Shown: in pieces, positions 12,477-63,998 of the stretch
How the letters are laid out: each line of letters opens with the position of its first letter
How positions within the stretch are numbered: position 1 is the first letter of the stretch
Assembly: GCA_964501445.1 (NCBI GenBank)
Contig: CAZCSJ010000001.1
Location: 7,248 to 71,247 of the forward strand
Length of the DNA stretch: 64,000 nt
Source: an uncultured Candidatus Saccharibacteria bacterium
Lineage (GTDB): Bacteria; Patescibacteriota; Minisyncoccia; Sungbacterales; HO2-52-23
Direction: 5' to 3'
Made by a program: the position numbers and the translations under genes
Notes under the pieces: model-generated
Seen by the model: the letters and a program-made list of their open reading frames with translations, nothing else
The model's database searches: none
Told to the model about the DNA's origin: nothing

Positions 12477-13808
12477 TCATCTGCGGGAATTGATGGTGAG
12501 GTTTGGATGCGCTTCCAGTTTCTTCCAGGGCTTTCCGCCAGCTGGCGGATTGCCTGTGAAGTATGCCGCGAGTGCGATCATGAGGGCGTTGTCGCCGGTC
12601 AACGATGAATTAGGAATTAAGAAGTATGAATTATGGACTTCTTTTCTTAGTGCTTCCCGGAGTTTTTGTTGTAGCAGATGGTTTGCGGCAACTCCGCCGC
12701 CGAGGAGCACGGTTTTGGCTTTGTATTCTTTTACCGCTCTGACAGTTTTTTTCACGAGTACATCTACAACCGCGTCTTGAAATTCTTTTGCGATCGCAGG
12801 GCGCAAGCGGCGTATGTCTGCGGGCTTCATCTCACGGAGCATATAGAGTACTGCGGTTTTGAGCCCCGAAAAGGAAAAATCGTAATCGTGTGAATGGAGC
12901 ATGGGTCGCGGGAGTATCACTTTATAATTTTTGTATTCCCTCGACTCTGCTCGGGAAATATTTCCTGAGCTTGTCGAAGAACTATCTTTTATACCGCGCG
13001 CTATACGCGCGATCTCCGGTCCTCCAGGGTATGGCAGTCCCAAAAGCCGCGCGACTTTATCGAACGCCTCCCCTGCCGCATCGTCCCGCGTCTCGCCGAT
13101 TATTTTGAATTTTCCGTGTCCGCGCATAAGTACGAGTTCTGTGTGCCCGCCGGATACCAGAAGCGCGAGGGCGGGGAATTTGATAGGTTTTAGGGGGTAG
13201 GTTTTAGGGGGTAGGGACTTTGGTATGAGAGCGGAATATAAATGACCTGCCATGTGGTCGGTTGGAAGCAACGGCACGTTCCAAAGTGCAGAAAGCGCGC
13301 GGGCAAAATTCACCCCGACCCAAAGCGCGGGCGCAAGTCCGGGGCCGTGCGTGACCGCGATTGCGTCTATCTTTGGCGCAGGCAGCGGTGCGATATGTTT
13401 TTTGAAGCGAAACAGGAGTTCGGGTTCACGTTCGAGGATCAAATTAAGGTTGCCCCTCGACTTCGCTCGGGGAATAATAATTCCTGAGCCTGTCGAAGGA
13501 TTACTTTTCAGTTTATGCAGTTTTCCTTCCTTCAGTGCTTTGAGTAAAAGTGGCACGAGATTTTTCTGGTGTTCCCGTTTTGCGAGATTGGGCACCACCC
13601 CACCGAATTTTTGGTGTATTTTCACCTGCGAGGAGATGAGGTTTGCTAATACGCGGATTTTCGCAGATGATAACGCAGATTTACGCAGATTCGTATCCGC
13701 GCGGATCCGCGAGGGTTGTTTAATCGGTGTTAATCCGCGGCCATTGCTGAATTCCGCAATGGCAATTGCGGTTTCATCACAGCTGGTCTCTATCGCGAGA
13801 ATGCGCAT
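12477..13808 (-). CDS. tsaD: tRNA N6-adenosine threonylcarbamoyltransferase TsaD (about 100 aa longer than usual because of repeat-derived inserts)
   Basis: 443 aa. MRILAIETSCDET.., GGVVPNLAKREH, SGGHTEL and LGGGVAANHLL are Kae1/TsaD hallmarks. Confidence 0.9.
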   Translation of the reverse strand: MRILAIETSCDETAIAIAEFSNGRGLTPIKQPSRIRADTNLRKSALSSAKIRVLANLISSQVKIHQKFGGVVPNLAKREHQKNLVPLLLKALKEGKLHKLKSNPSTGSGIIIPRAKSRGNLNLILEREPELLFRFKKHIAPLPAPKIDAIAVTHGPGLAPALWVGVNFARALSALWNVPLLPTDHMAGHLYSALIPKSLPPKTYPLKPIKFPALALLVSGGHTELVLMRGHGKFKIIGETRDDAAGEAFDKVARLLGLPYPGGPEIARIARGIKDSSSTSSGNISRAESREYKNYKVILPRPMLHSHDYDFSFSGLKTAVLYMLREMKPADIRRLRPAIAKEFQDAVVDVLVKKTVRAVKEYKAKTVLLGGGVAANHLLQQKLREALRKEVHNSYFLIPNSSLTGDNALMIALAAYFTGNPPAGGKPWKKLEAHPNLTINSRR

Positions 13809-32567: not shown

Positions 32568-33008
32568 TCAGTAGACAACCTGGAACCCGCGCCGGACCAC
32601 ACGGTCGGGATTCACACCGCAGCGGTATTGGCCGGACGCTTGGATCACAGTATCAAGAACGCCATCGGGCGGCTCCACATCCTTCTGTGATACTTTCACC
32701 GTATAGCAGGCGCTCGCACCTCCGCCCGAAGAAATGGTGATGGTCTCTTCGGGCATACAGGGATCTCCGAAATTCACCACGTTTCCTTTATCGCATACAT
32801 CGTCTGCCGCTCTCCGGTCGCGATAGAGCATCCGCTCCATGCCTTGGTCGGCCGCATAGGACGCAAAAAAAGAATCCGCGAGTTCCCCGGAAATCCGAAG
32901 CTGGCCGTAGGCAACATTGAAAATCCCTACGCTGATAGAGAGGAGAGCGGAGACGATCACCACGACAAGGAGGAGAGTAATACCCTCACGCGAATGAAAC
33001 TTGAACAT
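32568..33008 (-). CDS. Minor pseudopilin-like protein (no Glu at +5)
   Basis: I place the start at the ATG at 33008 (MFKFHSREGITLLLVVVIVSALL..). The longer ORF-track N-terminus is encoded by a 15-bp inverted repeat (33030-33044 / 33074-33088). Confidence 0.6.
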   Translation of the reverse strand: MFKFHSREGITLLLVVVIVSALLSISVGIFNVAYGQLRISGELADSFFASYAADQGMERMLYRDRRAADDVCDKGNVVNFGDPCMPEETITISSGGGASACYTVKVSQKDVEPPDGVLDTVIQASGQYRCGVNPDRVVRRGFQVVY

Positions 33009-33118
33009 CACGCCAACACGCGAACATATGCGAACAACGCAAATGAAAACACCAGGAGTATCTTGAGTCATTGATTTGCGTTGTTCGCGTTGAGTTCGTG
33101 TCGTTCGCATGATGCTGT

Positions 33119-33877
33119 TTAAAATTCCCTTAGCCGCGGGACAATGCTCGTCTGAAGCGACAGGGACACAGGAGACGAGAGCCGCGGATCTGCGGACTGG
33201 ACTTGAAGGACGATCGTCGCGATCGGCTGGCCATCGGAAGAACCCCGCGTCGCGCCATGGAGAACGAAACGGAGATTTTTCACTCTCACCTCATCGCTCG
33301 TGAGCGGCTGGGTGTATGCCGTCTCCCCGCAGTTTTGGTGATTTACACTGTCACTCATCCGCATGATGGTGAGATTTTCCGGCCGCGAATCCCAGTAGTA
33401 GGTAATCTGCGTTCCCTCGGAGTTGGTAAACGTGAGTTCGTGGATCGGATCAAACCCGGAACCCACGCAGTTTAACCCAAAGGAGGTATTTTGGTACCCA
33501 AAACCCGTGCGGAGCTCTTTTGTAATCAACTCCAAACTGAAACGGACATTATCTTGGATCGCCTGGGTTTCGGCCGCGCGGACCTGCGCATTCATGATAT
33601 CAATCGTGACTCCGATCGCGCTCACCACGATCACCAAAAAAATCCCCATGGAGGTAACCATCTCAAGCAAGGTAAACCCGTTTCGCCCCCCACCCCACGA
33701 TGAGATTCCTATGCGTTTTTGCGAAATTGTGGAGGCGTGGCGCACAAATAACCGAAGCGAGGAGGATGGGAAACAGGGGCGCGAGTCCCGCGGGAAGCGG
33801 GACGAGCGAACACTGAGGGGTTCCCGCCGACGAGCGAGGATTATTTGTCCACGCCGAAACGTTGAAGCAAAACGCAT
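33119..33877 (-). CDS. Type IV pilin-like pseudopilin with a long identical N-terminal module
   Basis: G|FTLLEMVTSMGIFLVIVV prepilin motif. The ATG at 33877 lies 7 nt after the upstream stop. The first about 70 codons are identical to the next gene. Confidence 0.75.
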   Translation of the reverse strand: MRFASTFRRGQIILARRREPLSVRSSRFPRDSRPCFPSSSLRLFVRHASTISQKRIGISSWGGGRNGFTLLEMVTSMGIFLVIVVSAIGVTIDIMNAQVRAAETQAIQDNVRFSLELITKELRTGFGYQNTSFGLNCVGSGFDPIHELTFTNSEGTQITYYWDSRPENLTIMRMSDSVNHQNCGETAYTQPLTSDEVRVKNLRFVLHGATRGSSDGQPIATIVLQVQSADPRLSSPVSLSLQTSIVPRLREF

Positions 33878-33879
33878 AG
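33663..33879 (-). repeat. Duplicated pseudopilin 5-prime module, copy 1
   Basis: 33663-33863 is identical base for base to 34456-34656 (201 bp, compared by eye). Similarity continues through the ATG. Confidence 0.95.
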
Positions 33880-33884
33880 GAATC

Positions 33885-34670
33885 TCATCTCCAATTATAT
33901 AATCGCTCCCGCAACTCGACCTCTTTTCGCACTCCGCGCTCATCCCACCATACTCGTGAGATAACATCCATTTGGTCGTTCTTGTTGATGTTATTCGCTT
34001 GATCTTCATTATCGGGCGGCGATCTCACGGTGACGGTGCGGCGAAAGATCGTGGGCTCCGCACCGCCGTATCCCACAAGACCGGTTGCTGGATCCCGCGA
34101 GAGATTTTGATTCCCCACGCCGGCCTGGGCAGGAGAAAACAACGGCATGGGAATTACGGGGTTTCCCCCGCACGTGATTCCTTCCGGTCCGATCTGGGTG
34201 GCATCCACCTCCCATGTGCCGTCCATGGATCCGCTCCCCGAGGGATGACGCTCCCAATCCCATTTTGGCTTGCCGTTCAATTGATCGCACAGCACATTAT
34301 TTTCACGCACGAGCCGCACGATCTCAATTCCCTCTTGCGCGAGGTGCAGGGCGGCAAGACGGTTTTTGGCGGAAGGGAAAGAAGAAATACTGCGCGTGAC
34401 CACCGCAACCGGCCCCACGACTGCCGCGAGAATCAGAGAGAGGGCGATAATGGTTTCAAGCAAGGTAAACCCGTTTCGCCCCCCACCCCACGATGAGATT
34501 CCTATGCGTTTTTGCGAAATTGTGGAGGCGTGGCGCACAAATAACCGAAGCGAGGAGGATGGGAAACAGGGGCGCGAGTCCCGCGGGAAGCGGGACGAGC
34601 GAACACTGAGGGGTTCCCGCCGACGAGCGAGGATTATTTGTCCACGCCGAAACGTTTGAGTAAAACGCAT
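33885..34670 (-). CDS. Type IV pilin-like pseudopilin with a long identical N-terminal module
   Basis: G|FTLLETIIALSLILAAVV prepilin motif. The ATG at 34670 lies 7 nt after the upstream stop. Confidence 0.75.
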   Translation of the reverse strand: MRFTQTFRRGQIILARRREPLSVRSSRFPRDSRPCFPSSSLRLFVRHASTISQKRIGISSWGGGRNGFTLLETIIALSLILAAVVGPVAVVTRSISSFPSAKNRLAALHLAQEGIEIVRLVRENNVLCDQLNGKPKWDWERHPSGSGSMDGTWEVDATQIGPEGITCGGNPVIPMPLFSPAQAGVGNQNLSRDPATGLVGYGGAEPTIFRRTVTVRSPPDNEDQANNINKNDQMDVISRVWWDERGVRKEVELRERLYNWR

Positions 34671-34672
34671 AG
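34456..34672 (-). repeat. Duplicated pseudopilin 5-prime module, copy 2
   Basis: See copy 1. Confidence 0.95.
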
Positions 34673-34677
34673 TGGCT

Positions 34678-35334
34678 TCACTTTATACTTATCTGCCCGT
34701 TCGTTTTCACAATGATGGTTCGCTGCGGACTGCCGTCGGAGGGGGCCACGACAATACGCAGTTCACTTCCAATATCTGCTCCATTCTCATCGGTAAGCGT
34801 GAGTTTTGCTTCTGGCGCGGCAAAAAGAACGTGCGCCGCGGGATAGGGATTTTGCGACTGCAAGCCGCGGAGTTCATAGATCGTGGTACCACGCGGCAAG
34901 TAATACTTTTGGATATCAAGATCCGCGCCGCCTTGCTCGCCGAGCGGCACATATTTTCCGTCAGGCGGATTTCCCATATCGGCAAAAGTTTGCGTGGAGA
35001 GTTCCCCTGCCCGAATCCACACCCCGACCACCGGAGCGGTCACGGGTCCCGCCTGTGTCGGTACGGCGCGCACCGCGAGCGCCATGTTCTGGGCGCTCCG
35101 AAGGGTAAGTGCTACCTCGCGGCTGGCGCGGTTCAATACCCCTCCCTCATTGAGGCCGGTGAAACTCACAAGCACCAACGCGCTCATGAAGGTTACCACC
35201 GCAATCATGACGACCGCTTCAACGAGTGTGAATCCCGCACATAACTTCTTTTTACTTCTCTCGTGCACCCCTTCATTGTATCGTGTTTTGTCTAAATAAA
35301 AAATCCCCTCGTATGGGCAATGGGATTCTCGCAT
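34678..35334 (-). CDS. Type IV pilin-like pseudopilin
   Basis: KKKLCAG|FTLVEAVVMIAVV prepilin motif. The real start may be the in-frame GTG at 35268, which would give a 12-aa leader. Confidence 0.8.
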   Translation of the reverse strand: MRESHCPYEGIFYLDKTRYNEGVHERSKKKLCAGFTLVEAVVMIAVVTFMSALVLVSFTGLNEGGVLNRASREVALTLRSAQNMALAVRAVPTQAGPVTAPVVGVWIRAGELSTQTFADMGNPPDGKYVPLGEQGGADLDIQKYYLPRGTTIYELRGLQSQNPYPAAHVLFAAPEAKLTLTDENGADIGSELRIVVAPSDGSPQRTIIVKTNGQISIK

Positions 35335-35354
35335 ACACCTATCTACGTTTCCAT

Positions 35355-35421
35355 GTCATCCTGAGGGCGAAGCCCGAAGGATCTTGAGATTCTTCTCCGC
35401 CAACTGGCGGATCAGAATGAC
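35355..35421. repeat. Family-E palindromic element with a nested family-D-like core
   Basis: GTCATCCTGAGGGCGAAG...CTCCGCCAACTGGCGGATCAGAATGAC. Confidence 0.8.
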
Positions 35422-35428
35422 AAAAAAA

Positions 35429-35839
35429 TCACTTTTCAAACCGCAGTTCGTATTGGTCGCCTGACGCGATGGTGAGCGCGCGAAGGGGACCTGCCACCGG
35501 CGCGCCATTTTTATACACCACGCCGCGGCGGATGCGGTCAGACCCGTCTCCGGAGAGAATCTCCTCACCCTCTATTCGGATGGGGAGGTCGGCATCGCGA
35601 ATGATCTCCTTGAGGACAAGAGAGAACGGATAGGATGAATTTTCCATCGGCCCCTCAAATGCGCGTCGTGTTCCGTTTCCAAAATCAATGCTCACCCATG
35701 CGGCCTTTGCGCTCTGATGCAAAAGAGGAGAAACAGAACCCTCATCCTTTTTTGCGACAAAAAGAGGCACCGCGACAAAAAAGAGGAGCGCCGCGGAGGT
35801 AATCAGGAGTATGAAAATGAGGGGGAGGCGTACGCGCAT
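35429..35839 (-). CDS. Membrane-anchored hypothetical protein of the pilus locus
   Basis: MRVRLPLIFILLITSAALLFFVAV.. gives a single TM plus a roughly 100-aa extracytoplasmic domain. No family assigned. Confidence 0.6.
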   Translation of the reverse strand: MRVRLPLIFILLITSAALLFFVAVPLFVAKKDEGSVSPLLHQSAKAAWVSIDFGNGTRRAFEGPMENSSYPFSLVLKEIIRDADLPIRIEGEEILSGDGSDRIRRGVVYKNGAPVAGPLRALTIASGDQYELRFEK

Positions 35840-35901: not shown

Positions 35902-36732
35902 TTAGAGAAATAAGGGGAAACCTGCGATACGCAAAAGTGTGGAGCTGTAAAAATATGCGATGAGAGTGCCTAAAAGAATAAAGGGACCGAAAGGTATGGT
36001 TTCGGCAAGAGTTCTCCTTTTTGAAAAAAGAAGCAGAATACCCACCGCAGCCCCTGTCCAGAACGAAAAGAGGAATGCGGCAATTGACGCGGGGAATCCC
36101 ACAAGGAGCGAGGTTGCGAGCGCCAATTTCGCATCGCCAAATCCCATCCAGCGGCCGCGCGACGCATACCAGAGAACCGCAAAAAAGAGTGCGATCACAC
36201 ACGCGCTTATTCCATCATAGAGGAGAGACCCAAACCATGACAATGACGATGACCATGATGGCAACGATGATAAAGACCGCATGATGGTGGCGGCAATACC
36301 CAAAAACGCCAATACGAGCACCGCGCCGTCAGGAATAATCATCCAACGGAGATCCGACACAAAAATCACGATTGCGGCGGCGATGCCGACGAATACGGCG
36401 CTAAGAAGTGCGAGGGATCCAAGCGATGCGTCAAGCGACGGCAAGAGGTGCCAGAGCGCAATGCCGTAGGCAAGGGCAGTTCCCGCTTCCACAAGCGGGT
36501 ATTGGAGCGAAAGGGCGGCGCCGCATGAACGGCACCGCCCTTTCTGAAAAAGAAAACTTGCAACCGGAATGAGTTCTTTTATTGAGAGGGTGCGCGCGCA
36601 GTGGGGACAGCGCGATCGCCCTCCGAGCGTCTCTCCATTCTTGCCGCGCAGGATCACCACATTGAGGAAGCTCCCGACGACGAGTCCGAGAATCACCGCG
36701 CCTCCTATCGCGATGTAAGCGAACGGAAGCAT
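35902..36732 (-). CDS. pilD: Prepilin peptidase (A24 family)
   Basis: 276 aa. The Cys-pairs CPHC...CRSC, the catalytic Asp motifs GFGDAKL, and the IPFGPF C-terminus. Confidence 0.92.
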   Translation of the reverse strand: MLPFAYIAIGGAVILGLVVGSFLNVVILRGKNGETLGGRSRCPHCARTLSIKELIPVASFLFQKGRCRSCGAALSLQYPLVEAGTALAYGIALWHLLPSLDASLGSLALLSAVFVGIAAAIVIFVSDLRWMIIPDGAVLVLAFLGIAATIMRSLSSLPSWSSSLSWFGSLLYDGISACVIALFFAVLWYASRGRWMGFGDAKLALATSLLVGFPASIAAFLFSFWTGAAVGILLLFSKRRTLAETIPFGPFILLGTLIAYFYSSTLLRIAGFPLFL

Positions 36733-36741
36733 GGAGGGGAG

Positions 36742-37281
36742 TTATGGACGCACGTCGTAGCAGGTTTCGTCCTCCACAGGATCGGCTTTCGTACCATCGC
36801 ACTGACCGGTTGTCGTCTCACTCTGTCCGTGGAAGCCGTTCGTATAAGCGGTGGAGTCAAAATCAGCATCGGTCTTAAGAGCCCCCTGTTTCTTATCTTC
36901 CAGCCGCCCTCCCAAGTGGTACGTGGTGGGCTTCGTATCGTCTTTCACCGTCGCGTATCGGTAACAGGTATCTGATGAACCCGCATCCCGAGGCACTTGC
37001 GGAATTTGAGTTCCTTCCATTACTTCCAAGCCGTTATCCGTGCTCGCGTCGCAACCCGCTGATGCCACCGGATATTTGCTGTTCGCGTCAAAATAGAGTT
37101 CAAGGGCAAGCTGAATCTGCTTCAAATCGCTTATGCGGCGCACATCGCGCGATTTCTGGCGGGCGTTGTTTAACGACGCGAGCACGATGGAGGAGAGCAC
37201 CCCGATGATTGCAATGACGACCAGAAGTTCTATCAACGTGAAGCCGATGTCGGCGCGCTTTTTATTCAGTAATTGGACCAT
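36742..37281 (-). CDS. Type IV major pilin-like protein
   Basis: 179 aa. KKRADIG|FTLIELLVVIAIIGVLSSIVL is the canonical class III signal. Confidence 0.88.
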   Translation of the reverse strand: MVQLLNKKRADIGFTLIELLVVIAIIGVLSSIVLASLNNARQKSRDVRRISDLKQIQLALELYFDANSKYPVASAGCDASTDNGLEVMEGTQIPQVPRDAGSSDTCYRYATVKDDTKPTTYHLGGRLEDKKQGALKTDADFDSTAYTNGFHGQSETTTGQCDGTKADPVEDETCYDVRP

Positions 37282-37391: not shown

Positions 37392-37459
37392 TCCCGTTAG
37401 AGGTCCGATTTTCTTAGAGAAAATCGGCAGAAACCATAGGTTTCTTACCTCTAACGGGA
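37392..37459 (-). repeat. Family-B inverted-repeat element, copy 2 (immediately after the pilC stop)
   Basis: TCCCGTTAGAGGT ... ACCTCTAACGGGA enclosing two hairpins (CCGATTTTC/GAAAATCGG and AGAAACC/GGTTTCT). Confidence 0.85.
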
Positions 37460-38668
37460 CTAAATGCTTCCCACAAGGTTATAGAGCGGCACCAGCACCG
37501 CCGAAACGAGCGCGGCAACTCCAAGGCCCAGCCCGATGATCAAAATCGGCTCAATCAACGCCACAAGGTTATCCACCGCTGAATCCACTTCGCGCTGGTA
37601 GAACTTCGCAACGCTCCCGAGGATAAAATCAAGCCGTCCGGACGCCTCCCCGATACGAACCATCTGGGTCACAAGCACCGGAACGCGGTTTGACCTCTCA
37701 AGGGCGGAAGAGATCGTACTGCCGCCCTTCACCGACTCAATCGCGTCGGTAATCACGCGCTGGTAGACGGCATTCCCCACCACATCGCGCGTGACTTCAA
37801 GCGCCCGAAGAATCGGGATGCCGCCGACAATCAGGGTCCGGAGGTTATCCGTAAAACGCGCCATATAGAGCTTTTGGTAGAGGCCGCCGAATACCGGCGC
37901 CCGAAGCTGCAGCATATGGAGCGCATATTTCCCGCGTGCCGTAACTCCCCACCGCCAGACAAGAATCGCTCCGGCGATAACAAAAAGAAGCAGGAGCACA
38001 CCCCACTGCTGGAGGAAGGTGGAGAGCCCGATTATAAACCTCGTGAACAGGGGAACTTGCTGTTGGGTTTCCTCAAATATTTTTACAAGCCGCGGGATAA
38101 TGACCACGAGCATGATGATAAGCACCGCGACAAACGCAAAGAGCACAAATGCGGGATAGATCATGGCATTGCGCGCTTTTGAAGTAAGGTAGTAGGAACG
38201 CTCCAGATAGTCGGCAAGATAGGTGAATACCTCCTGCAGTTTTCCCGATTCCTCGCCCGAACGCACAAGGTAAATATAGAACGGAGAGAAAATGGCAGGG
38301 TGTTTGGCAAGGGCTTGGGAGAGCGCGAGGCCTCCGGACACGTCATCAAGAATCGTCGCAATCGCGGTTTTGAGCGCAGGGGTCGGCGTTTCACCCACAA
38401 GAGTTTTTAAGGCGGTCGCAACGGGAATGTTTGCTTCAAAGAGGGTTGCGAGCTGCCGCGAGAATATGACCACATCTTTTTGCTTCACGCGGCCGCCAAG
38501 TATTGAAATGTTCCATGCGGCAATACGGTCACGCTCCTCTTCCACAGAGATAATGAGAAGGTTTTGCTGATGGAGAATGTCTATTGCCCCGTCCCGGGAG
38601 GAGGCGTCAATCACGCCGGAACGGATTTCTCCTTGTTGAGTTTTGGCTTTGTAGTTAAAAGTAGGCAT
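37460..38668 (-). CDS. pilC: Type IV pilus platform protein PilC (GspF family)
   Basis: 402 aa. Two GspF repeats and 3 TM segments. Confidence 0.93.
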   Translation of the reverse strand: MPTFNYKAKTQQGEIRSGVIDASSRDGAIDILHQQNLLIISVEEERDRIAAWNISILGGRVKQKDVVIFSRQLATLFEANIPVATALKTLVGETPTPALKTAIATILDDVSGGLALSQALAKHPAIFSPFYIYLVRSGEESGKLQEVFTYLADYLERSYYLTSKARNAMIYPAFVLFAFVAVLIIMLVVIIPRLVKIFEETQQQVPLFTRFIIGLSTFLQQWGVLLLLFVIAGAILVWRWGVTARGKYALHMLQLRAPVFGGLYQKLYMARFTDNLRTLIVGGIPILRALEVTRDVVGNAVYQRVITDAIESVKGGSTISSALERSNRVPVLVTQMVRIGEASGRLDFILGSVAKFYQREVDSAVDNLVALIEPILIIGLGLGVAALVSAVLVPLYNLVGSI

Positions 38669-38788
38669 TGGTACGAGGGACTAGGGGTTAGGTTTTAGGT
38701 TGTAGGGGGTAAGGGGTCCTGCTAATGATTACCGGTAACTAATTATCAATTTATTAATCCCTAGCCCCTAATCCCTAAAACCTAGAAC
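38669..38788. repeat. G-rich TTAGGG-like repeats in inverted arrangement around an AT-rich core (pilT-pilC spacer)
   Basis: Left arm CTAGGGGTTAGGTTTTAGGTTGTAGGGGGTAAGGGG. Right arm CCCTAGCCCCTAATCCCTAAAACCTAGAACCTAG. Confidence 0.8.
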
Positions 38789-39856
38789 CTAGTTTTTAAG
38801 GAGCGTTTGCAGCTCTTCAGGATTGAGAGAGTAGCGGGTGGCGTTTTCTATGGAAATTTCGCCGCGCCGGATCAAATCCACGAGCGAGCGGTTCAAACTC
38901 ATCATTCCTTCGCCCGAGCTGGTTTCAATCACAAGATTGATTTCGTGGACTTTATTCTCGCGGATGAGATTCCTGATCGCGGGATTCACCAGCATCACTT
39001 CCACCGCCGGAATGAGGCCGCCTGAGATCCTCGGCACCAAGCGCTGCGACACAATGCCCACGAGCGAGGATGCGAGCTGCGCGCGGATCTGCCCCTGCTG
39101 GTCGCCGGGAAAGGAATCAATAATGCGGTCAATGGTCTGGGCGGCGTTGTTGGTGTGCAGAGTGGAGAGAATAAAATGGCCGGTTTCCGCGGCGGTGACG
39201 GCAATCGCCATGGTCTCGGCATCCCGCATCTCGCCCACCATTGCCACATCCACATCTTCGCGGAACACCGAACGGAGCGCTTTATGGAAGGAATGGGTGT
39301 CAAACCCCACTTCGCGCTGGTCAATAATTGCGCGGTCTGACACAAAGAGATATTCAATAGGATCTTCAATCGTGATGATGTGGTCTGCGCGGGTATGATT
39401 TATGAAATCCACCATTGCGGCAAGCGTGGTAGATTTTCCGTGGCCCGTGGGGCCCACCACGAGCAGAAATCCCTGCTGGAGTCCTGCGAGTTCTTTTAAT
39501 ATCGGTGGGAGGAATAACTCCTCTGCGGTTTTAATGGCGTTGGGAATGAGGCGCAGGGCCGCCCCCATGTATCCCCGCTGGAAAAACACATTCACCCGAA
39601 AGCGCGCGCGGTCGCGAAAGTTATACGAGAGATCAAGCTCCTTCTCTTCCATGAATTTTTTCTCCTGCTCGGGCGAGAGCATCGCGAGAATAAAATCGCG
39701 CACCACCTCGGGGGTCACGATCTCTTCTTTTACGAGCAGTATAAGCGAACCGTTGACGCGGAGCGTAGGATGGCGCCCCACCGAGAGGTGGAGATCCGAC
39801 GCGTTCTCCTTTACCACAGTGGAGAGGAGCTCTTCAAGATAGTTTTTTCCTGCCAT
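38789..39856 (-). CDS. pilT: Type IV pilus retraction ATPase PilT
   Basis: 355 aa. Walker A GPTGHGKST, Asp box, GHFILSTLHTNNA. Confidence 0.93.
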   Translation of the reverse strand: MAGKNYLEELLSTVVKENASDLHLSVGRHPTLRVNGSLILLVKEEIVTPEVVRDFILAMLSPEQEKKFMEEKELDLSYNFRDRARFRVNVFFQRGYMGAALRLIPNAIKTAEELFLPPILKELAGLQQGFLLVVGPTGHGKSTTLAAMVDFINHTRADHIITIEDPIEYLFVSDRAIIDQREVGFDTHSFHKALRSVFREDVDVAMVGEMRDAETMAIAVTAAETGHFILSTLHTNNAAQTIDRIIDSFPGDQQGQIRAQLASSLVGIVSQRLVPRISGGLIPAVEVMLVNPAIRNLIRENKVHEINLVIETSSGEGMMSLNRSLVDLIRRGEISIENATRYSLNPEELQTLLKN

Positions 39857-43438: not shown

Positions 43439-43447
43439 TGTGAGGTT

Positions 43448-44023
43448 TTAGGGGTTAGGGGTTAGGGGGGAAGAAAGAGAGGCGCGGAAAAATGAGGGGG
43501 TAAAAATGATCGTGGTCTGGAATCTAAGAATGTTATTTTGGTCAAGCGCCAAATTGCCAAATTCCACCCGCTCTATGCGGGGATCTCCCTCAAGGAGCGC
43601 GATTTGCCGCGCGAGTGTCGCATAGCCCGCTGCCTCGCCTGACATATCAAGGCGCCGGGTATCCGCGCGGAAATTAAAATTGAGGAAACGGACCCGAGGG
43701 TTGGTCGTGCTCTCAAGGAACGAAAAAATTGGGGTGAGGAAAAGGCGCTGCGAGAGAATAGTCCGCATGTCGCGGAGACGGCTATCCAGGAGAAACACCT
43801 GATTTATCGCTTCCGGCCGGATTTCTGCCTTGCTCTCAATCTCTGCGGTGAGTTCCTCAAGAGCTGAAGCCTGATACCGGTTGAGCACAAAAAGTCCGCC
43901 GTAGGCAGCGCCTTCCAGCACCAAAAGCGCAACGCCCGCATAGATAAGCAGGGGTACGGTTGAACGCACCGTGACGTCAATTTTGGAACCCATTGTTGCT
44001 TTTGATGAAAGGAGGTCGGCCAT
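43448..44023 (-). CDS. pilN: Type IV pilus biogenesis protein PilN-like
   Basis: I place the start at the ATG at 44023 (MADLLSS..). Single TM plus coiled coil. The C-terminal PLTPNP is encoded by the CCCCTAA repeat. Confidence 0.7.
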   Translation of the reverse strand: MADLLSSKATMGSKIDVTVRSTVPLLIYAGVALLVLEGAAYGGLFVLNRYQASALEELTAEIESKAEIRPEAINQVFLLDSRLRDMRTILSQRLFLTPIFSFLESTTNPRVRFLNFNFRADTRRLDMSGEAAGYATLARQIALLEGDPRIERVEFGNLALDQNNILRFQTTIIFTPSFFRASLSSPLTPNP

Positions 44024-44138
44024 CGCTTCGCTAAAATCAAATAGTAAAATGCAAAATGCAAAATGGAGGTGTCGCTTCGCGACCATGTAAAAATGCGTGT
44101 ATGTTTACATTTTGATCTGTCATTTTGACTCCTGGATG

Positions 44139-55425: not shown

Positions 55426-55496
55426 ACGAGAATTATGAATTACGAGTTATGAATTATGGTTTCGTATTGTAATTTTCTTAATTCGTAATTCATACT

Positions 55497-56780
55497 TCAT
55501 AATTCTGGCTCTTTGTCTTTACTCTCTTCGGTGCCTGTAGATTCGGCTACCGCCTCCTCCTCTTCAGACCCTGCCGGAGTTTCCGGTGCGTTGGAACGTA
55601 CATCAATCTTCCAACCGGTAAGGCGCGCGGCAAGGCGCACATTCTGCCCGCCCTTGCCGATCGCAAGCGAGAGCTGGTCTTCGGCAACAATGGCGCGCGC
55701 CTCGCGGCGCTCCTCATTGAGTTCCACATCAAGGACTTTTGCGGGCGAAAGGGCGTGCGACACAAACTCTGCCGCATCTTCGGACCATTCAATAATATCT
55801 ATCTTCTCGCCTCCGAGTTCGTTTATGACGGTGGAGACCCGAATGCCTTTCTGCCCCACGAGCGAACCCACGGGATCCACGCCCTGTTCGTTTGACGCGG
55901 CCGCGACCTTGGCGCGCGACCCGGGTTCGCGCGCGATCGCTTTTATCTCAACCGCCCCGGACGGTATTTCCGGAACTTCAAGCTCAAAGAGTTTTTTCAA
56001 AAGCAGGGGGTGGGAGCGCGAGAGCACGATCCCGGGCCCTCTCGGATTTTTCTCAACCGCCAAAATGAGGGTTTTGATACGGCTGCCGATATGCAGGCGT
56101 TCGTACGAATTCTGCTCTTCGGGAGGGAGGGCGGCAACCGTCCGTCCGATATCCACATAGACCATGCGCCCTTCAATCCGCTGGATGATGCCCGACACCA
56201 GCTCCCCCTCACGGTTTTTATAGTCGTCATAAATCGTCTCGCGTTCAATTTCGCGGATGCGTTGTATAATCACCTGTTTTGCGGTCTGCGCCGCAATCCG
56301 GCCGAAGTCGTCGTGCGACTGGAGCGGAAACTCAAGCTCATCTCCGGTCTTCACCTCGGGGGTGATCGCGCGCGCCTCTTCAATCATGATGTGTTTCTCC
56401 GGATTGAAACGGACTTTCTTCTCACCCGGCTCCTCGCTTTCCTCTTCCCGCTCTCCTTTTTTCCCTTTTTCTTTTTCCTTCTCTTCCTGTTCTTCCGGCG
56501 CAATGCCCGCAAGCCGCCGCGCGCGCTCCTCTTCCTCTGCCTGCACCTCTTCTTCGGATTTAATCATCGTGTCATCCACGACGATTTTAATTTGGCGCAT
56601 TTCCAACGCCCCGGTTTTCGGATCCATCTTCGCACGGATAAGCTGGCCGCGTTTGCCATAGTCACGTTTGTAGGCGGCAGCTAACGCCATCTCTATGGTC
56701 TCAAAAATCTTTTCCTGCGGGATTCCTTTCTCGTCGGCAATCTGCTGGATTGCCTGTGTAAATGTTTTGAGGTCAATCAT
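55497..56780 (-). CDS. nusA: Transcription termination/antitermination factor NusA (with a Glu/Lys-rich insert)
   Basis: 427 aa with NusA N-domain, S1 domain and two KH domains (GQKGIRV.., GKGGQNVRLA). Confidence 0.93.
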   Translation of the reverse strand: MIDLKTFTQAIQQIADEKGIPQEKIFETIEMALAAAYKRDYGKRGQLIRAKMDPKTGALEMRQIKIVVDDTMIKSEEEVQAEEEERARRLAGIAPEEQEEKEKEKGKKGEREEESEEPGEKKVRFNPEKHIMIEEARAITPEVKTGDELEFPLQSHDDFGRIAAQTAKQVIIQRIREIERETIYDDYKNREGELVSGIIQRIEGRMVYVDIGRTVAALPPEEQNSYERLHIGSRIKTLILAVEKNPRGPGIVLSRSHPLLLKKLFELEVPEIPSGAVEIKAIAREPGSRAKVAAASNEQGVDPVGSLVGQKGIRVSTVINELGGEKIDIIEWSEDAAEFVSHALSPAKVLDVELNEERREARAIVAEDQLSLAIGKGGQNVRLAARLTGWKIDVRSNAPETPAGSEEEEAVAESTGTEESKDKEPEL

Positions 56781-61871: not shown

Positions 61872-63998
61872 ATGCAGATTACCCTTGCGACACCGCTCTC
61901 TTCTATTCCCAAAATCAGTGCGCGCATTCGGCCGGCGCTCGCGCGTCTCGGGATTCTCACCGTCCGCGATCTCCTTTTTCATTTTCCCTCGCGCTATGAC
62001 GATTTTTCGAATATGCGTCAGATCCGGAGCGTGGGGCTAAATGAAACCGTAACAGTGCAGGGAGTGATTGAACGCGTGAGCGCGCGGCGCACCGCAAAAA
62101 AGCACATGGCGTTGACCGAAGCCGTAATTCGCGACGGCTCCGGAGCGATACGCGCGATTTGGTTCAATCAGCCGTTTCTCGCGCGAACTTTAAAAGAGGG
62201 GCAGAGGGTAAGTATTTCCGGGAAAACCGCCCGCGGGGCGCAGGGCATCTATTTTCAGAACCCCGCCTACGAGCGCGCAAAACGAAATCTCCATACTGCG
62301 GGGCTTGTCGCGGTCTATCCGGAGAGTAAGGGCATCTCATCGCGCTGGCTCCGATTTCTTACGAAATCCTTCATGCCGCTCGCATCCTCCTTTCCCGATC
62401 CGCTTCCCTTAGAAACCCTTCGCAGGTATCAACTCCCCGGAGCGCGCGATGCCATCCGAATGATCCACTTCCCCAAGACCCTTGAAGAGGCAGAACGCGC
62501 AAAAAAGAGATTCCAGTTTGAGAAACTGCTTTTGATCCGGCTCCGGGCGCTCCGAGAGAAACACCTCTTGAAGAAAGAGGCGGCTCCGAGAATTCCCCTT
62601 GACCTTCCGCTCGTGAAATCATTCGTGGCATCGCTCCCGTTTGCCCTCACCGATGCCCAGCGCCGTTCCCTTTGGGAAATTCTGCAAGACCTTTCAAAGT
62701 CCCAGCCAATGAATCGGCTGCTTGAAGGCGATGTGGGATCAGGGAAAACCGTGGTGGCCGCCGCTGCCGCACTCTTGGTATCGCGCGCAGGGTTTCAGAC
62801 CGCGTTTCTTGCGCCAACGGAAATCTTGGCGCACCAGCATTTCGCAACGTTAGCGCAGGTACTCGCGCCATTTTCAATTTCCATGGGACTTCTCACAGGG
62901 ACTCACAAACGCTCCATGCCTTCCGATGATGTGGTGGTGGGCACCCATGCGCTCCTTCAAAAAGATGTACGCTTTGATCGCCTTGGATTTGTGGTGGTGG
63001 ATGAACAGCACCGGTTTGGCGTGAGGCAGCGCGCGGCTTTACTTCAGAAGCAAGAAGAAATCCTTCGACAAGCTCAGGATATATCTCCCGAGCAGAGTCG
63101 AGGGATACCCAAGAGTCAAGGAAGTATGTTGCTTCCGCATTTTTTATCAATGTCCGCGACCCCCATTCCGCGCACACTTGCGCTCACCCTCTATGGCGAT
63201 CTTGACCTCTCGCTCCTTGACGAGATGCCGCAGTCCCGGAAAAAAATTATCACCTCTATCATTCCGCCGTCCAAACGCGAAGACGCATATCATTTCATCC
63301 GTAAAGAGGTAGCCGCGGGACGACAAGTATTTGTCATCTGTCCGCGGATAGACGCCGAATCAGGAATCAGGAATCAGGAATCAGGAAAAGGACAGCAGCA
63401 ACTTTTGCTTTCAGATGTGAAGGCGGTGAAGGAAGAGTATAAAAAGCTTTCCGAGGAGATTTTTCCCGATCTCCGCGTGGGAATGCTCCACGGCAAAATG
63501 AAGGCAAAAGAAAAAGCGGATGCTATGGAACGATTTCGCAAAGGTGAAGCGGATATTCTCGTCTCTACCTCTGTGGTGGAAGTGGGCGTGGATGTGCCAA
63601 ACGCTACCCTCATGATGATCGAGGGCGCGGAGCGGTTTGGGCTCGCCACTCTCCACCAATTCCGAGGGCGCGTGGGCAGAGGGAGCGAACAATCATACTG
63701 CCTCCTTTTTCCTACTGAAGATGGTGTGGGCGCACAGCGCCTCCGTGCGCTTATGGAGGCAAACACCGGCTTTGAACTCGCGGAAAAGGACTTAGAGCTG
63801 CGCGGCGCAGGGGATCTCTTGGGCGTGCGGCAGTGGGGTGTGGAGAGCGATCTTATAGACGCGCTTCGGGATCAGGCGCTCGTACGGATAGTGAACCGTG
63901 AAGCAACGCTCCTCATGGCGCGCGACCCCTCGCTTGCCTCGTGTCCCCTCCTGAAACAGGCGTTGGAGAGCGCAGAAAAGCAGATACATCTTGAATGA
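61872..63998 (+). CDS. recG: ATP-dependent DNA helicase RecG
   Basis: 708 aa. OB wedge domain, helicase motifs GDVGSGKT, DEQHRFG, SATPIPRT and QFRGRVGRG. Contains repeat-derived in-frame inserts. Confidence 0.95.
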   Translation: MQITLATPLSSIPKISARIRPALARLGILTVRDLLFHFPSRYDDFSNMRQIRSVGLNETVTVQGVIERVSARRTAKKHMALTEAVIRDGSGAIRAIWFNQPFLARTLKEGQRVSISGKTARGAQGIYFQNPAYERAKRNLHTAGLVAVYPESKGISSRWLRFLTKSFMPLASSFPDPLPLETLRRYQLPGARDAIRMIHFPKTLEEAERAKKRFQFEKLLLIRLRALREKHLLKKEAAPRIPLDLPLVKSFVASLPFALTDAQRRSLWEILQDLSKSQPMNRLLEGDVGSGKTVVAAAAALLVSRAGFQTAFLAPTEILAHQHFATLAQVLAPFSISMGLLTGTHKRSMPSDDVVVGTHALLQKDVRFDRLGFVVVDEQHRFGVRQRAALLQKQEEILRQAQDISPEQSRGIPKSQGSMLLPHFLSMSATPIPRTLALTLYGDLDLSLLDEMPQSRKKIITSIIPPSKREDAYHFIRKEVAAGRQVFVICPRIDAESGIRNQESGKGQQQLLLSDVKAVKEEYKKLSEEIFPDLRVGMLHGKMKAKEKADAMERFRKGEADILVSTSVVEVGVDVPNATLMMIEGAERFGLATLHQFRGRVGRGSEQSYCLLFPTEDGVGAQRLRALMEANTGFELAEKDLELRGAGDLLGVRQWGVESDLIDALRDQALVRIVNREATLLMARDPSLASCPLLKQALESAEKQIHLE

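Follow-up and report, generated by a model that had tools for sequence, protein, structure and literature searches.

The leaders of type IV prepilins are usually viewed as short, uninteresting tags, and the long leaders described for type IV pilins measure about 15–30 amino acids (aa). In Neisseria, gene conversion occurs among segments of the pilin genes pilE and pilS, and the signal-peptide-coding region of the opa genes carries phase-variable CTCTT repeats. Extragenic palindromes of the REP/BIME type are known, and intercistronic hairpins that occlude a start codon enforce translational coupling in operons. Rickettsia palindromic elements (RPE) are reportedly palindromic repeats situated in frame inside protein-coding genes. 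Type IVb pilins and the type IVa pilins of Streptococcus sanguinis have long class III signal peptides (review PMC10191384). Here we describe two adjacent minor-pilin genes, A and B, in a 64,000-nt stretch (the window) of contig CAZCSJ010000001.1 from an uncultured Candidatus Saccharibacteria bacterium. Their leader-coding segments host large in-frame palindromes and share a 201-nt block, which we call the module. The module is an unusually large example of a feature that is common in the pilus operons of Patescibacteria.

The shared leader segment of two minor-pilin genes

Gene B (33885–34670, 261 aa) and gene A (33119–33877, 252 aa counted from the ATG at 33877) both lie on the minus strand. 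Sequence comparison confirmed the original prediction that their 5' parts, at 34456–34656 (copy B) and 33663–33863 (copy A), are identical base for base; these 201 nt are the maximal exact block. Looser homology surrounds them, with 33650–33879 matching 34443–34672 at 96% over 230 nt. The mature parts of the two proteins are as diverged as had been claimed, at 19.5% identity. A blastn search over the 64-kb window, used to count the copies of the module, found no third one.

The repeat is genuine. In a separate assembly (ENA ERZ27284378, MEGAHIT, k=139), one contig ends at window position 34518 and a second one starts at 33801. They match the window at 100% identity, the pair carries its major pilin and ligase genes, and each contig stops exactly 139 nt inside the 201-nt block. 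A de Bruijn graph breaks in this way at a true repeat longer than k. Since an independent assembly stopped exactly k nt into the block from both sides, an assembly artefact was ruled out as the source of the repeat.

A contig from a second sample (ENA ERZ27284376, k119_584266, 1497 nt; L088) covers window positions 34886–34456 and 33879–32597. It lacks gene B: the end of pp3, the minor-pilin gene preceding B, and the B-type start of the module lead straight into the body of gene A. With 4 differences from the window over 1283 nt, the gene A portion indicates a slightly different strain. Either recombination between the two direct repeats really deleted 793 nt, or the assembler took a path through the repeat.

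Genes A and B have the type IV pilin-like class III signature, in which ...GRNG|FTLLE, with Gly at −1 and Glu at +5, is followed by a hydrophobic helix. The mature proteins start with FTLLEMVTSM (A) and FTLLETIIAL (B), and the Gly(−1) codons lie at 33679–33677 and 34472–34470, respectively. Across 42 homologues, G67, F68, T69, L70 and E72 were invariant or nearly so. The Pfam model N_methyl (PF07963) reached 17.4 and 19.9 bits on the two genes, below its cut-off of 21.2, and the matches fell where they were expected, at residues 65–84 (the position in gene B) and 65–87. Pilus machinery is encoded nearby, namely the prepilin peptidase PilD at 35902–36732 and, upstream, the major pilin, PilC and PilT. 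Gene B is weakly PilV/GspI-like (NCBIfam, sub-threshold). Searches for a named minor-pilin family gave only sub-threshold matches to the N-terminal helix of A and B (PilV, GspI, ComGE, GspH) and no useful relative of solved structure. A look-up of exact protein records returned none for gene B (261 aa) or for the longest open reading frame (ORF) of gene A (296 aa).

From the ATG to ...GGGRNG|FTLLE, the pilin frame is open for 67 codons, and both other frames contain stops. The resulting leader, M1–G67, is encoded at 34670–34470 in gene B and at 33877–33677 in gene A. It contains 14 Arg, 1 Lys, 1 Asp and 1 Glu and has a computed pI of 12, which bore out the long Arg-rich extension proposed ahead of the cleavage site. 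Among 5.8 billion proteins, the extension was found only in the two genes of the window and in one near-identical ENA variant. Seven nucleotides separate each ATG from the TGA of the gene ahead of it, and the ATG is part of the outer stem of the palindrome. These ATGs had been taken for the only ones in frame. The 7-nt spacing held, but the gene A frame is open into gene B and contains more ATGs, up to 34009; ATG 33877 is the only gene A ATG lying after the gene B stop. In both copies, an in-frame GTG, a candidate for an alternative start, is located 23 codons ahead of Gly(−1), at 34538–34536 (B) and 33745–33743 (A). The gene B GTG is buried in the 3' arm of an inner stem.

In copy A, the full palindrome is imperfect and 191 nt long (33699–33889, minus strand), and its halves are 66% identical over 100 aligned columns. 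Its outer arms are perfect over 21 nt (33699–33719 and 33869–33889), and the upstream arm spans the TGA stop of gene B, the 7-nt spacer and the ATG of gene A. In copy B (34492–34672, minus strand), the outer stem measures 11 nt only (CTATGCGTTTT / AAAACGCATAG) because the upstream flank differs, and the outer 10 nt of the upstream arm are missing. The palindrome does not bound the exact identity of the copies, which continues for 36 nt more into the codons of WGGGRNG|FTLLE. The entire 191-nt element folds on itself as a single long, imperfect hairpin whose centre is a GTCCCGC/GCGGGAC stem. Its predicted folding energy is −97 kcal/mol (z −4.0) for the sense RNA and −111 kcal/mol (z −6.9) for the antisense RNA. 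Inverted-repeat finding and these folds thus agree with the partial palindrome and central hairpin that had been predicted. A promoter and terminator scan found no site associated with the module.

Just past the palindrome on the minus strand (33684–33698 and 34477–34491, GTGGGGTGGGGGGCG), a GTG stands one base out of frame and is followed by runs of four and six G. Loss of one G from the G6 run would yield a short prepilin of canonical form, MGWGRNG|FTLLE; neither the two copies nor the three assemblies spanning the run differ in it. The minus strand of the module also has GGA at codon 10, just ahead of the inner stem (RRG-QII), and at codon 56, just past the outer 3' arm (RIG-ISS). This pair is loosely like the take-off and landing codons of translational bypassing. 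The open frame makes bypassing needless, and we consider the likeness a coincidence only.

Hairpin leaders in other Patescibacteria

Searching the full-length gene B protein against the same 5.8 billion proteins returned homologues that all came from Patescibacteria (source names include Sungbacteria and Sungiibacteriota) and whose alignments were confined to the mature 75% of the query. Leaders of their own, 20–56 aa long and unrelated in sequence to that of the window, are present in about half of the B orthologues, and about half have short leaders without a hairpin. Hairpins, often of 7-nt tandem repeats and their complement, underlie the leaders (20–60 aa) of many orthologues. The same long leader with normal divergence in orthologues generally would have counted against the original prediction. 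Around half of them do have long leaders, but these are unrelated in sequence and their turnover far outpaces that of the mature protein, which is a third outcome.

Our survey of 81 Patescibacteria loci (designated by L numbers) covered about 260 pilin cleavage motifs and used plain folding-energy comparisons and an explicit inverted-repeat finder. An inverted repeat was counted when it scored at least 12 within 260 nt upstream of the cleavage motif. At 65–68 sites, the leader measured at least 20 codons to the nearest in-frame ATG. Inverted repeats were present in 43% of the leaders longer than 30 aa, in 14% of those of 20–30 aa, in 4–9% of short leaders and in 0–3% of coding controls. The long leaders showed an autocorrelation of 0.348 at lag 7 and 0.319 at lag 14 and no 3-nt coding periodicity. 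A strong heptamer array was detected in 24% of them, versus 1% of short leaders and 0% of coding controls. In relatives, a typical long leader abounds in K, Q and N in one half and in F and L in the other, the mark of an inverted repeat that is translated, and 97% of long leaders carry a net positive charge. The gap between the upstream stop and the ATG had a median of 3–7 nt at any leader length, which places the extra DNA downstream of the ATG, ahead of the cleavage site. Across the 24 hairpins abutting cleavage codons, the pilin frame was open in 19 and the other frames in 4 and 8. The open frame, the position of the ATG, the charge and the repeats together argue, as features of the sequence, that translation starts beside the upstream stop and that the hairpins form part of the translated leader.

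The closest B orthologue (L084, 67% identical) has its ATG directly after the upstream TAA and no alternative start. Its hairpin, composed of (CAAAACG)x4, a small central hairpin and a complementary arm, lies wholly in the ORF and ends a few codons before G|FTLLE. Two other loci, L085 and L089, are syntenic with the window (pilD-pp3-B-A-pp4-ligase-gatC, thus including the order pilD-pp3-B-A-pp4), and their B and A orthologues both have hairpin leaders. In L085, the ATG overlaps the upstream stop (ATGA).

Leaders are shared within clusters and replaced between strains. The B and pp4 genes of L085 share 104 nt at 100% identity, of which the first base is that of the ATG, and the flanks are unrelated; in JGI metagenomes, this module has two copies only, on one contig. 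In L089, B, A and pp4 have a common 169-nt module at 93% and 73%, and pp3 has related arms. DNA matches between leaders reached at least 40 nt in nine gene pairs and at least 36 nt in twelve loci, the window included; no match at all linked the mature parts in any of 346 gene pairs. Homogenisation of leaders thus recurs and is limited to clusters, and the 201-nt identity in the window is its largest example. L089 and L091 are 98–100% identical in the flanks, and in B as in A no alignment is possible over the segment that starts at the upstream stop and ends about 15 nt short of G|F. Proteins at least 90% identical can have wholly different leaders (P0023 versus P0065; P0014 versus P0074). In the 90% clusters P0023/P0065, P0014/P0074 and P0010/P0057, the differences reflect replacement of the whole leader or differing start calls, not frameshifts.

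Near-perfect palindromes of 16–19 nt (TCCAACAGCGTGAAGC / GCTTCACGCTGTTGGA) are centred on the G|F codons of L089 (1619–1655 and 2349–2388) and L091 (175–208), where the QQREA codons are the reverse complement of the FTLLE codons. The pattern suggests an origin of some arms as inverted copies of the native coding sequence beside them. Tandem 7-nt arrays also occur elsewhere in the window. Two form inverted pairs (38688–38717 with 38765–38793; 55430–55458 with 55474–55506), and others lie at 12607–12635, 43439–43471, 44038–44067 and 63352–63392. On the sense strand, the mismatches in the 24 leader hairpins are mostly A-C, often one per 7-nt unit.

Proposed mechanism and alternative explanations

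The account that we prefer, and to which we give about an even chance, is a composite one: the module would be a translated, hairpin-forming leader segment that is homogenised by gene conversion and couples initiation to the upstream cistron. The module would supply the start codon at the foot of the 191-nt palindrome, 7 nt past the preceding stop, and translation from this ATG would read through the palindrome to produce a prepilin with a 67-residue basic leader. Prepilin leaders remain in the cytoplasm (review PMC10191384). The basic leader would likewise stay cytoplasmic, with PilD cutting at G|FTLLE, and a nucleic-acid element can reside in it because the leader sequence is almost unconstrained.

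Repeated gene conversion between the neighbouring minor-pilin leaders would keep the copies identical. Copy A is the likely donor, since its outer stem is perfect over 21 bp and includes the native stop/start junction, and copy B has a downstream arm without a partner. Palindrome-induced breaks may be repaired from the neighbouring copy, which would account for a conversion confined to the hairpin. The original prediction had offered three explanations of the module: a long pro-peptide homogenised by gene conversion, a control structure with a non-ATG start, and an insertion resembling a miniature inverted-repeat transposable element (MITE). The first is the best supported of the three, but what is conserved appears to be the nucleic-acid palindrome, with the peptide as its passenger.

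In the polycistronic mRNA, the start codon would be hidden in the stem until a ribosome terminating on the upstream cistron melts the foot of the hairpin. The geometry of a coupling hairpin is present, with 7 nt from TGA to ATG and the ATG paired in the outer stem of the predicted fold. With an ATG in a long stem 7 nt past the upstream stop, strict translational coupling is the most likely effect, and it would hold the minor pilins low and matched in amount. Taken by itself, the coupling step is less certain than the composite account.

Several points weigh against this account. We infer translation from the ATG, PilD cleavage, conversion and coupling alike from the DNA sequence alone. To our knowledge, the leaders described for type IV pilins measure about 5–30 aa, and 67 aa is well beyond that range. 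The GTG located 23 codons ahead of the cleavage site could be the real start. No Shine-Dalgarno motif was recognisable upstream of the pilT, pilC, pilA, pilD, ligase, gatC and gatA starts in the window, and ribosome-binding sites therefore cannot decide between start codons. The hairpin-free half of the orthologues indicates that the element is dispensable, which makes an essential regulatory role less credible. The antisense strand was more stable than the sense strand in 18 of 24 leader hairpins (L009–L084 and the window, whose own hairpin is among the 18), by a mean of 4.9 kcal/mol, a bias that is merely a weak trend once near-duplicate hairpins are removed. Selection for sense-strand RNA structure alone would not predict such an advantage; T-to-C changes by which stop codons are lost may account for it. 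Plain intergenic DNA contains heptamer palindromes as well, as in the TTAGGTT.../...AACCTAG array of the pilT-pilC spacer (38688–38793), and 38 of 72 heptamer arrays lie outside pilin-leader territory, so these palindromes may be generic elements of the genomes concerned.

Much of this would be expected if the palindrome were functionless or selfish. It would then have arisen by inverted duplication or template switching and would persist in unconstrained DNA, where selection only holds the frame open; the identity of the copies would result from break repair between neighbouring palindromes. The hairpin-free orthologues, the heptamer palindromes in spacers and the lack of a folding advantage on the sense strand agree with this explanation. 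So do the wholesale replacement of hairpins between strains with 98–100% identical flanks and the arms that copy adjacent native sequence (the stop/ATG junction in the window; TCCAACAGCGTGAAGC/GCTTCACGCTGTTGGA over the cleavage codons in L089/L091). However, the hairpins keep the same position in distant lineages despite full sequence turnover, they are about ten-fold denser in leader territory than across the loci overall, and a long perfect stem over the start codon should be costly if useless. This explanation has its origin story in common with the preferred account and differs from it on function alone. We regard it as unlikely, but as a serious rival and the strongest of the alternatives.

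A bolder proposal is that portable segments of start codon plus palindrome, exchanged within a cluster and replaced between strains, constitute a dedicated control device for the pilus-tip complex. Such a device would act by strict translational coupling or by direct-repeat recombination that removes a tip subunit, the latter being hinted at by L088. We consider this proposal doubtful.

The palindrome might instead be an untranslated intercistronic RNA structure acting on stability, processing or translation, with the long ORF incidental and the true start at GTG 34538/33745 or a near-cognate codon. The in-frame GTG, which would yield a 23-aa leader (MRHASTISQKRIGISSWGGGRNG|F), does exist, as the original prediction of a non-ATG start requires. 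Some relatives have a canonical start about 10 codons before Gly(−1) in the loop (L060, TTG-KKKVSRSLTG|F; L027, MLRRIGSLTG|F), and by a rough estimate the chance of 66 open codons at this G+C content is about 0.1, which is not negligible. However, the GTG lies in a stem and has no ribosome-binding motif, and relatives with hairpin leaders, L084 and many others among them, usually have no nearer start. The ATG stays beside the upstream stop, and the bias of open frames across the hairpins (19 of 24, against 4 and 8) favours the pilin frame. Rfam 15 gave only tRNAs at gathering score in the window, and a search of 32900–35500 at E<=1 returned no match overlapping the module. An untranslated structure is thus improbable.

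The module could also belong to a genetic switch of pilus-tip composition, in which direct-repeat recombination deletes or duplicates gene B or repeat tracts shift the frame on and off. L088, which joins a B-type module start to the gene A body, would be a product of the former; the 7-nt units, not divisible by three, and the out-of-frame GTG, which would open MGWGRNG|FTLLE if the G6 run lost one G, would suit the latter. Known contingency loci show many OFF alleles. Essentially all of the surveyed genes are ON with an intact frame, however, and the arrays have only 3–5 units. The G6 run does not vary between the copies or the assemblies, and L088 could be an assembler path, or else a deletion that is irreversible. 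We find a switch very unlikely.

Independent insertion of a MITE-like element into both genes, open in frame by chance, has the least to recommend it. The terminal inverted repeats are there (a perfect 21 nt in copy A, 11 nt in copy B), the size of 191 nt is typical, and hairpins are replaced with sharp edges between close relatives. Yet the flanks (...AATTGGA before and GTGGGGT... after the element) contain no direct repeat and hence no target-site duplication, and the two copies in the 64 kb occupy equivalent positions in adjacent genes, one lacking the outer 10 nt of a terminal repeat. The search for copies elsewhere that the original prediction had called for gave none. The 21-nt arm had no exact match in 185,579 species-representative genomes or JGI metagenomes, sets that evidently do not include the source genome, and an inner 22-mer had none in viral contigs. 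The L085 module is likewise limited to its two pilin genes. Identity that continues 36 nt into conserved pilin codons resembles copying between genes, not two insertions. A target of a diversity-generating retroelement was ruled out, as the copies are identical and N-terminal, and so was an integron attC site, as the genes are syntenic across lineages and are not cassettes.

Operon setting and comparison with described systems

The two genes belong to a type IV pilus operon on the minus strand, in the order pilT (38789–39856), pilC (37460–38668), the major pilin gene (36742–37281), pilD (35902–36732), an ORF of 145 aa, pp3 (34678–35334), B, A and pp4 (32568–33110). Downstream of pp4 are genes for an ATP-dependent DNA ligase and then gatC/gatA. 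The major pilin has an ordinary 13-aa leader, MVQLLNKKRADIG|FTLIE. PilD, with the Pfam domains A24_N_bact and Peptidase_A24, is the enzyme expected to cut the leader. The minor-pilin gene pp3 (G|FTLVE) ends in a TGA 7 nt ahead of the gene B ATG.

The pilin-like gene pp4 starts with an ATG 8 nt past the gene A stop and has an in-frame 18-nt inverted repeat (94% complementary; 33030–33047 / 33071–33088, minus strand). The repeat sits between the first ATG and a second ATG 9 codons ahead of G|ITLLL, from which the sequence reads MFKFHSREG|ITLLL. This arrangement is a smaller version of the leader layout of A and B. An Rfam match of pp4 to a plant microRNA precursor was sub-threshold (E 0.0055; 29.9 bits, where the gathering score is 70) and reflects the hairpin only.

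Another inverted repeat (TCCCGTTAGAGGT / ACCTCTAACGGGA, 37392–37404 / 37447–37459) is found in the spacer that separates pilC from the major pilin gene and belongs to the 5' region of that gene. Its core (CCCGTTAGAG / CTCTAACGGG) recurs in distant Patescibacteria (L027, L060, L071, L058 and L055). In those relatives, the 3' arm overlaps the LTG|F codons, the 5' arm reads as a pseudo-site, 'GFTPLE', and the likely start is often in the loop.

If the hairpins set the amounts of tip subunits, they would be a new control layer for type IV pili, and such pili are consistently encoded in these genomes. If they are merely tolerated, they would show in a clean natural example how selfish or mutational palindromes find shelter in a peptide that is cleaved off. 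In either event, gene callers and signal-peptide predictors likely misassign pilin starts and leader lengths in these genomes, and a 67-aa leader would be a limit case for what a prepilin peptidase can process. Should leader segments indeed act as a dedicated control device, they would offer a route to altering pilus-tip composition in bacteria that depend on type IV pili. Our literature search found no description of palindromic or heptamer-repeat pilin leaders in Patescibacteria. Apparently undescribed are thus the lineage-wide occurrence of translated palindromic leaders, their concerted evolution in clusters and their wholesale replacement between strains.

The leaders of type IVb and S. 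sanguinis pilins are a close analogue. Like the leader of the module, these are hydrophilic and positively charged, end in Gly and precede a hydrophobic alpha1N helix that includes Glu5, and the gene of a PilD-type peptidase is close by. However, they are much shorter and are not known to be palindromic in their DNA, whereas the module encodes a 67-aa leader that is common, base for base, to two otherwise unrelated pilins. The short tandem units of phase-variable loci, which likewise lie in the leader-coding region of surface-filament genes, resemble the 7-nt repeats of the relatives. Unlike those loci, the leaders described here have essentially no OFF alleles among about 260 genes, their short arrays are paired with their own complement, and the module of the window has no clear tandem units.

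As in Neisseria pilE/pilS, a pilin segment appears to have been copied between genes, leaving identical stretches in diverged ones. There, conversion diversifies the exposed mature part; here, it would homogenise the discarded leader, and the mature parts are about 20% identical. REP/BIME palindromes and coupling hairpins share with the module a position at a cistron junction and a start codon that is paired in a stem within a few nucleotides of the upstream stop. They are untranslated, whereas the module is read through as an ORF, and its coupling function is putative. Finally, the module resembles RPE in being a palindrome of about 100–200 nt within an ORF, where the frame is kept open and the extra peptide is harmless to the mature protein. 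RPE form families dispersed over many unrelated genes and intergenic sites. The module, in contrast, was found in two copies, at the same position of neighbouring pilin genes and with none dispersed, in a segment that is probably cleaved off.

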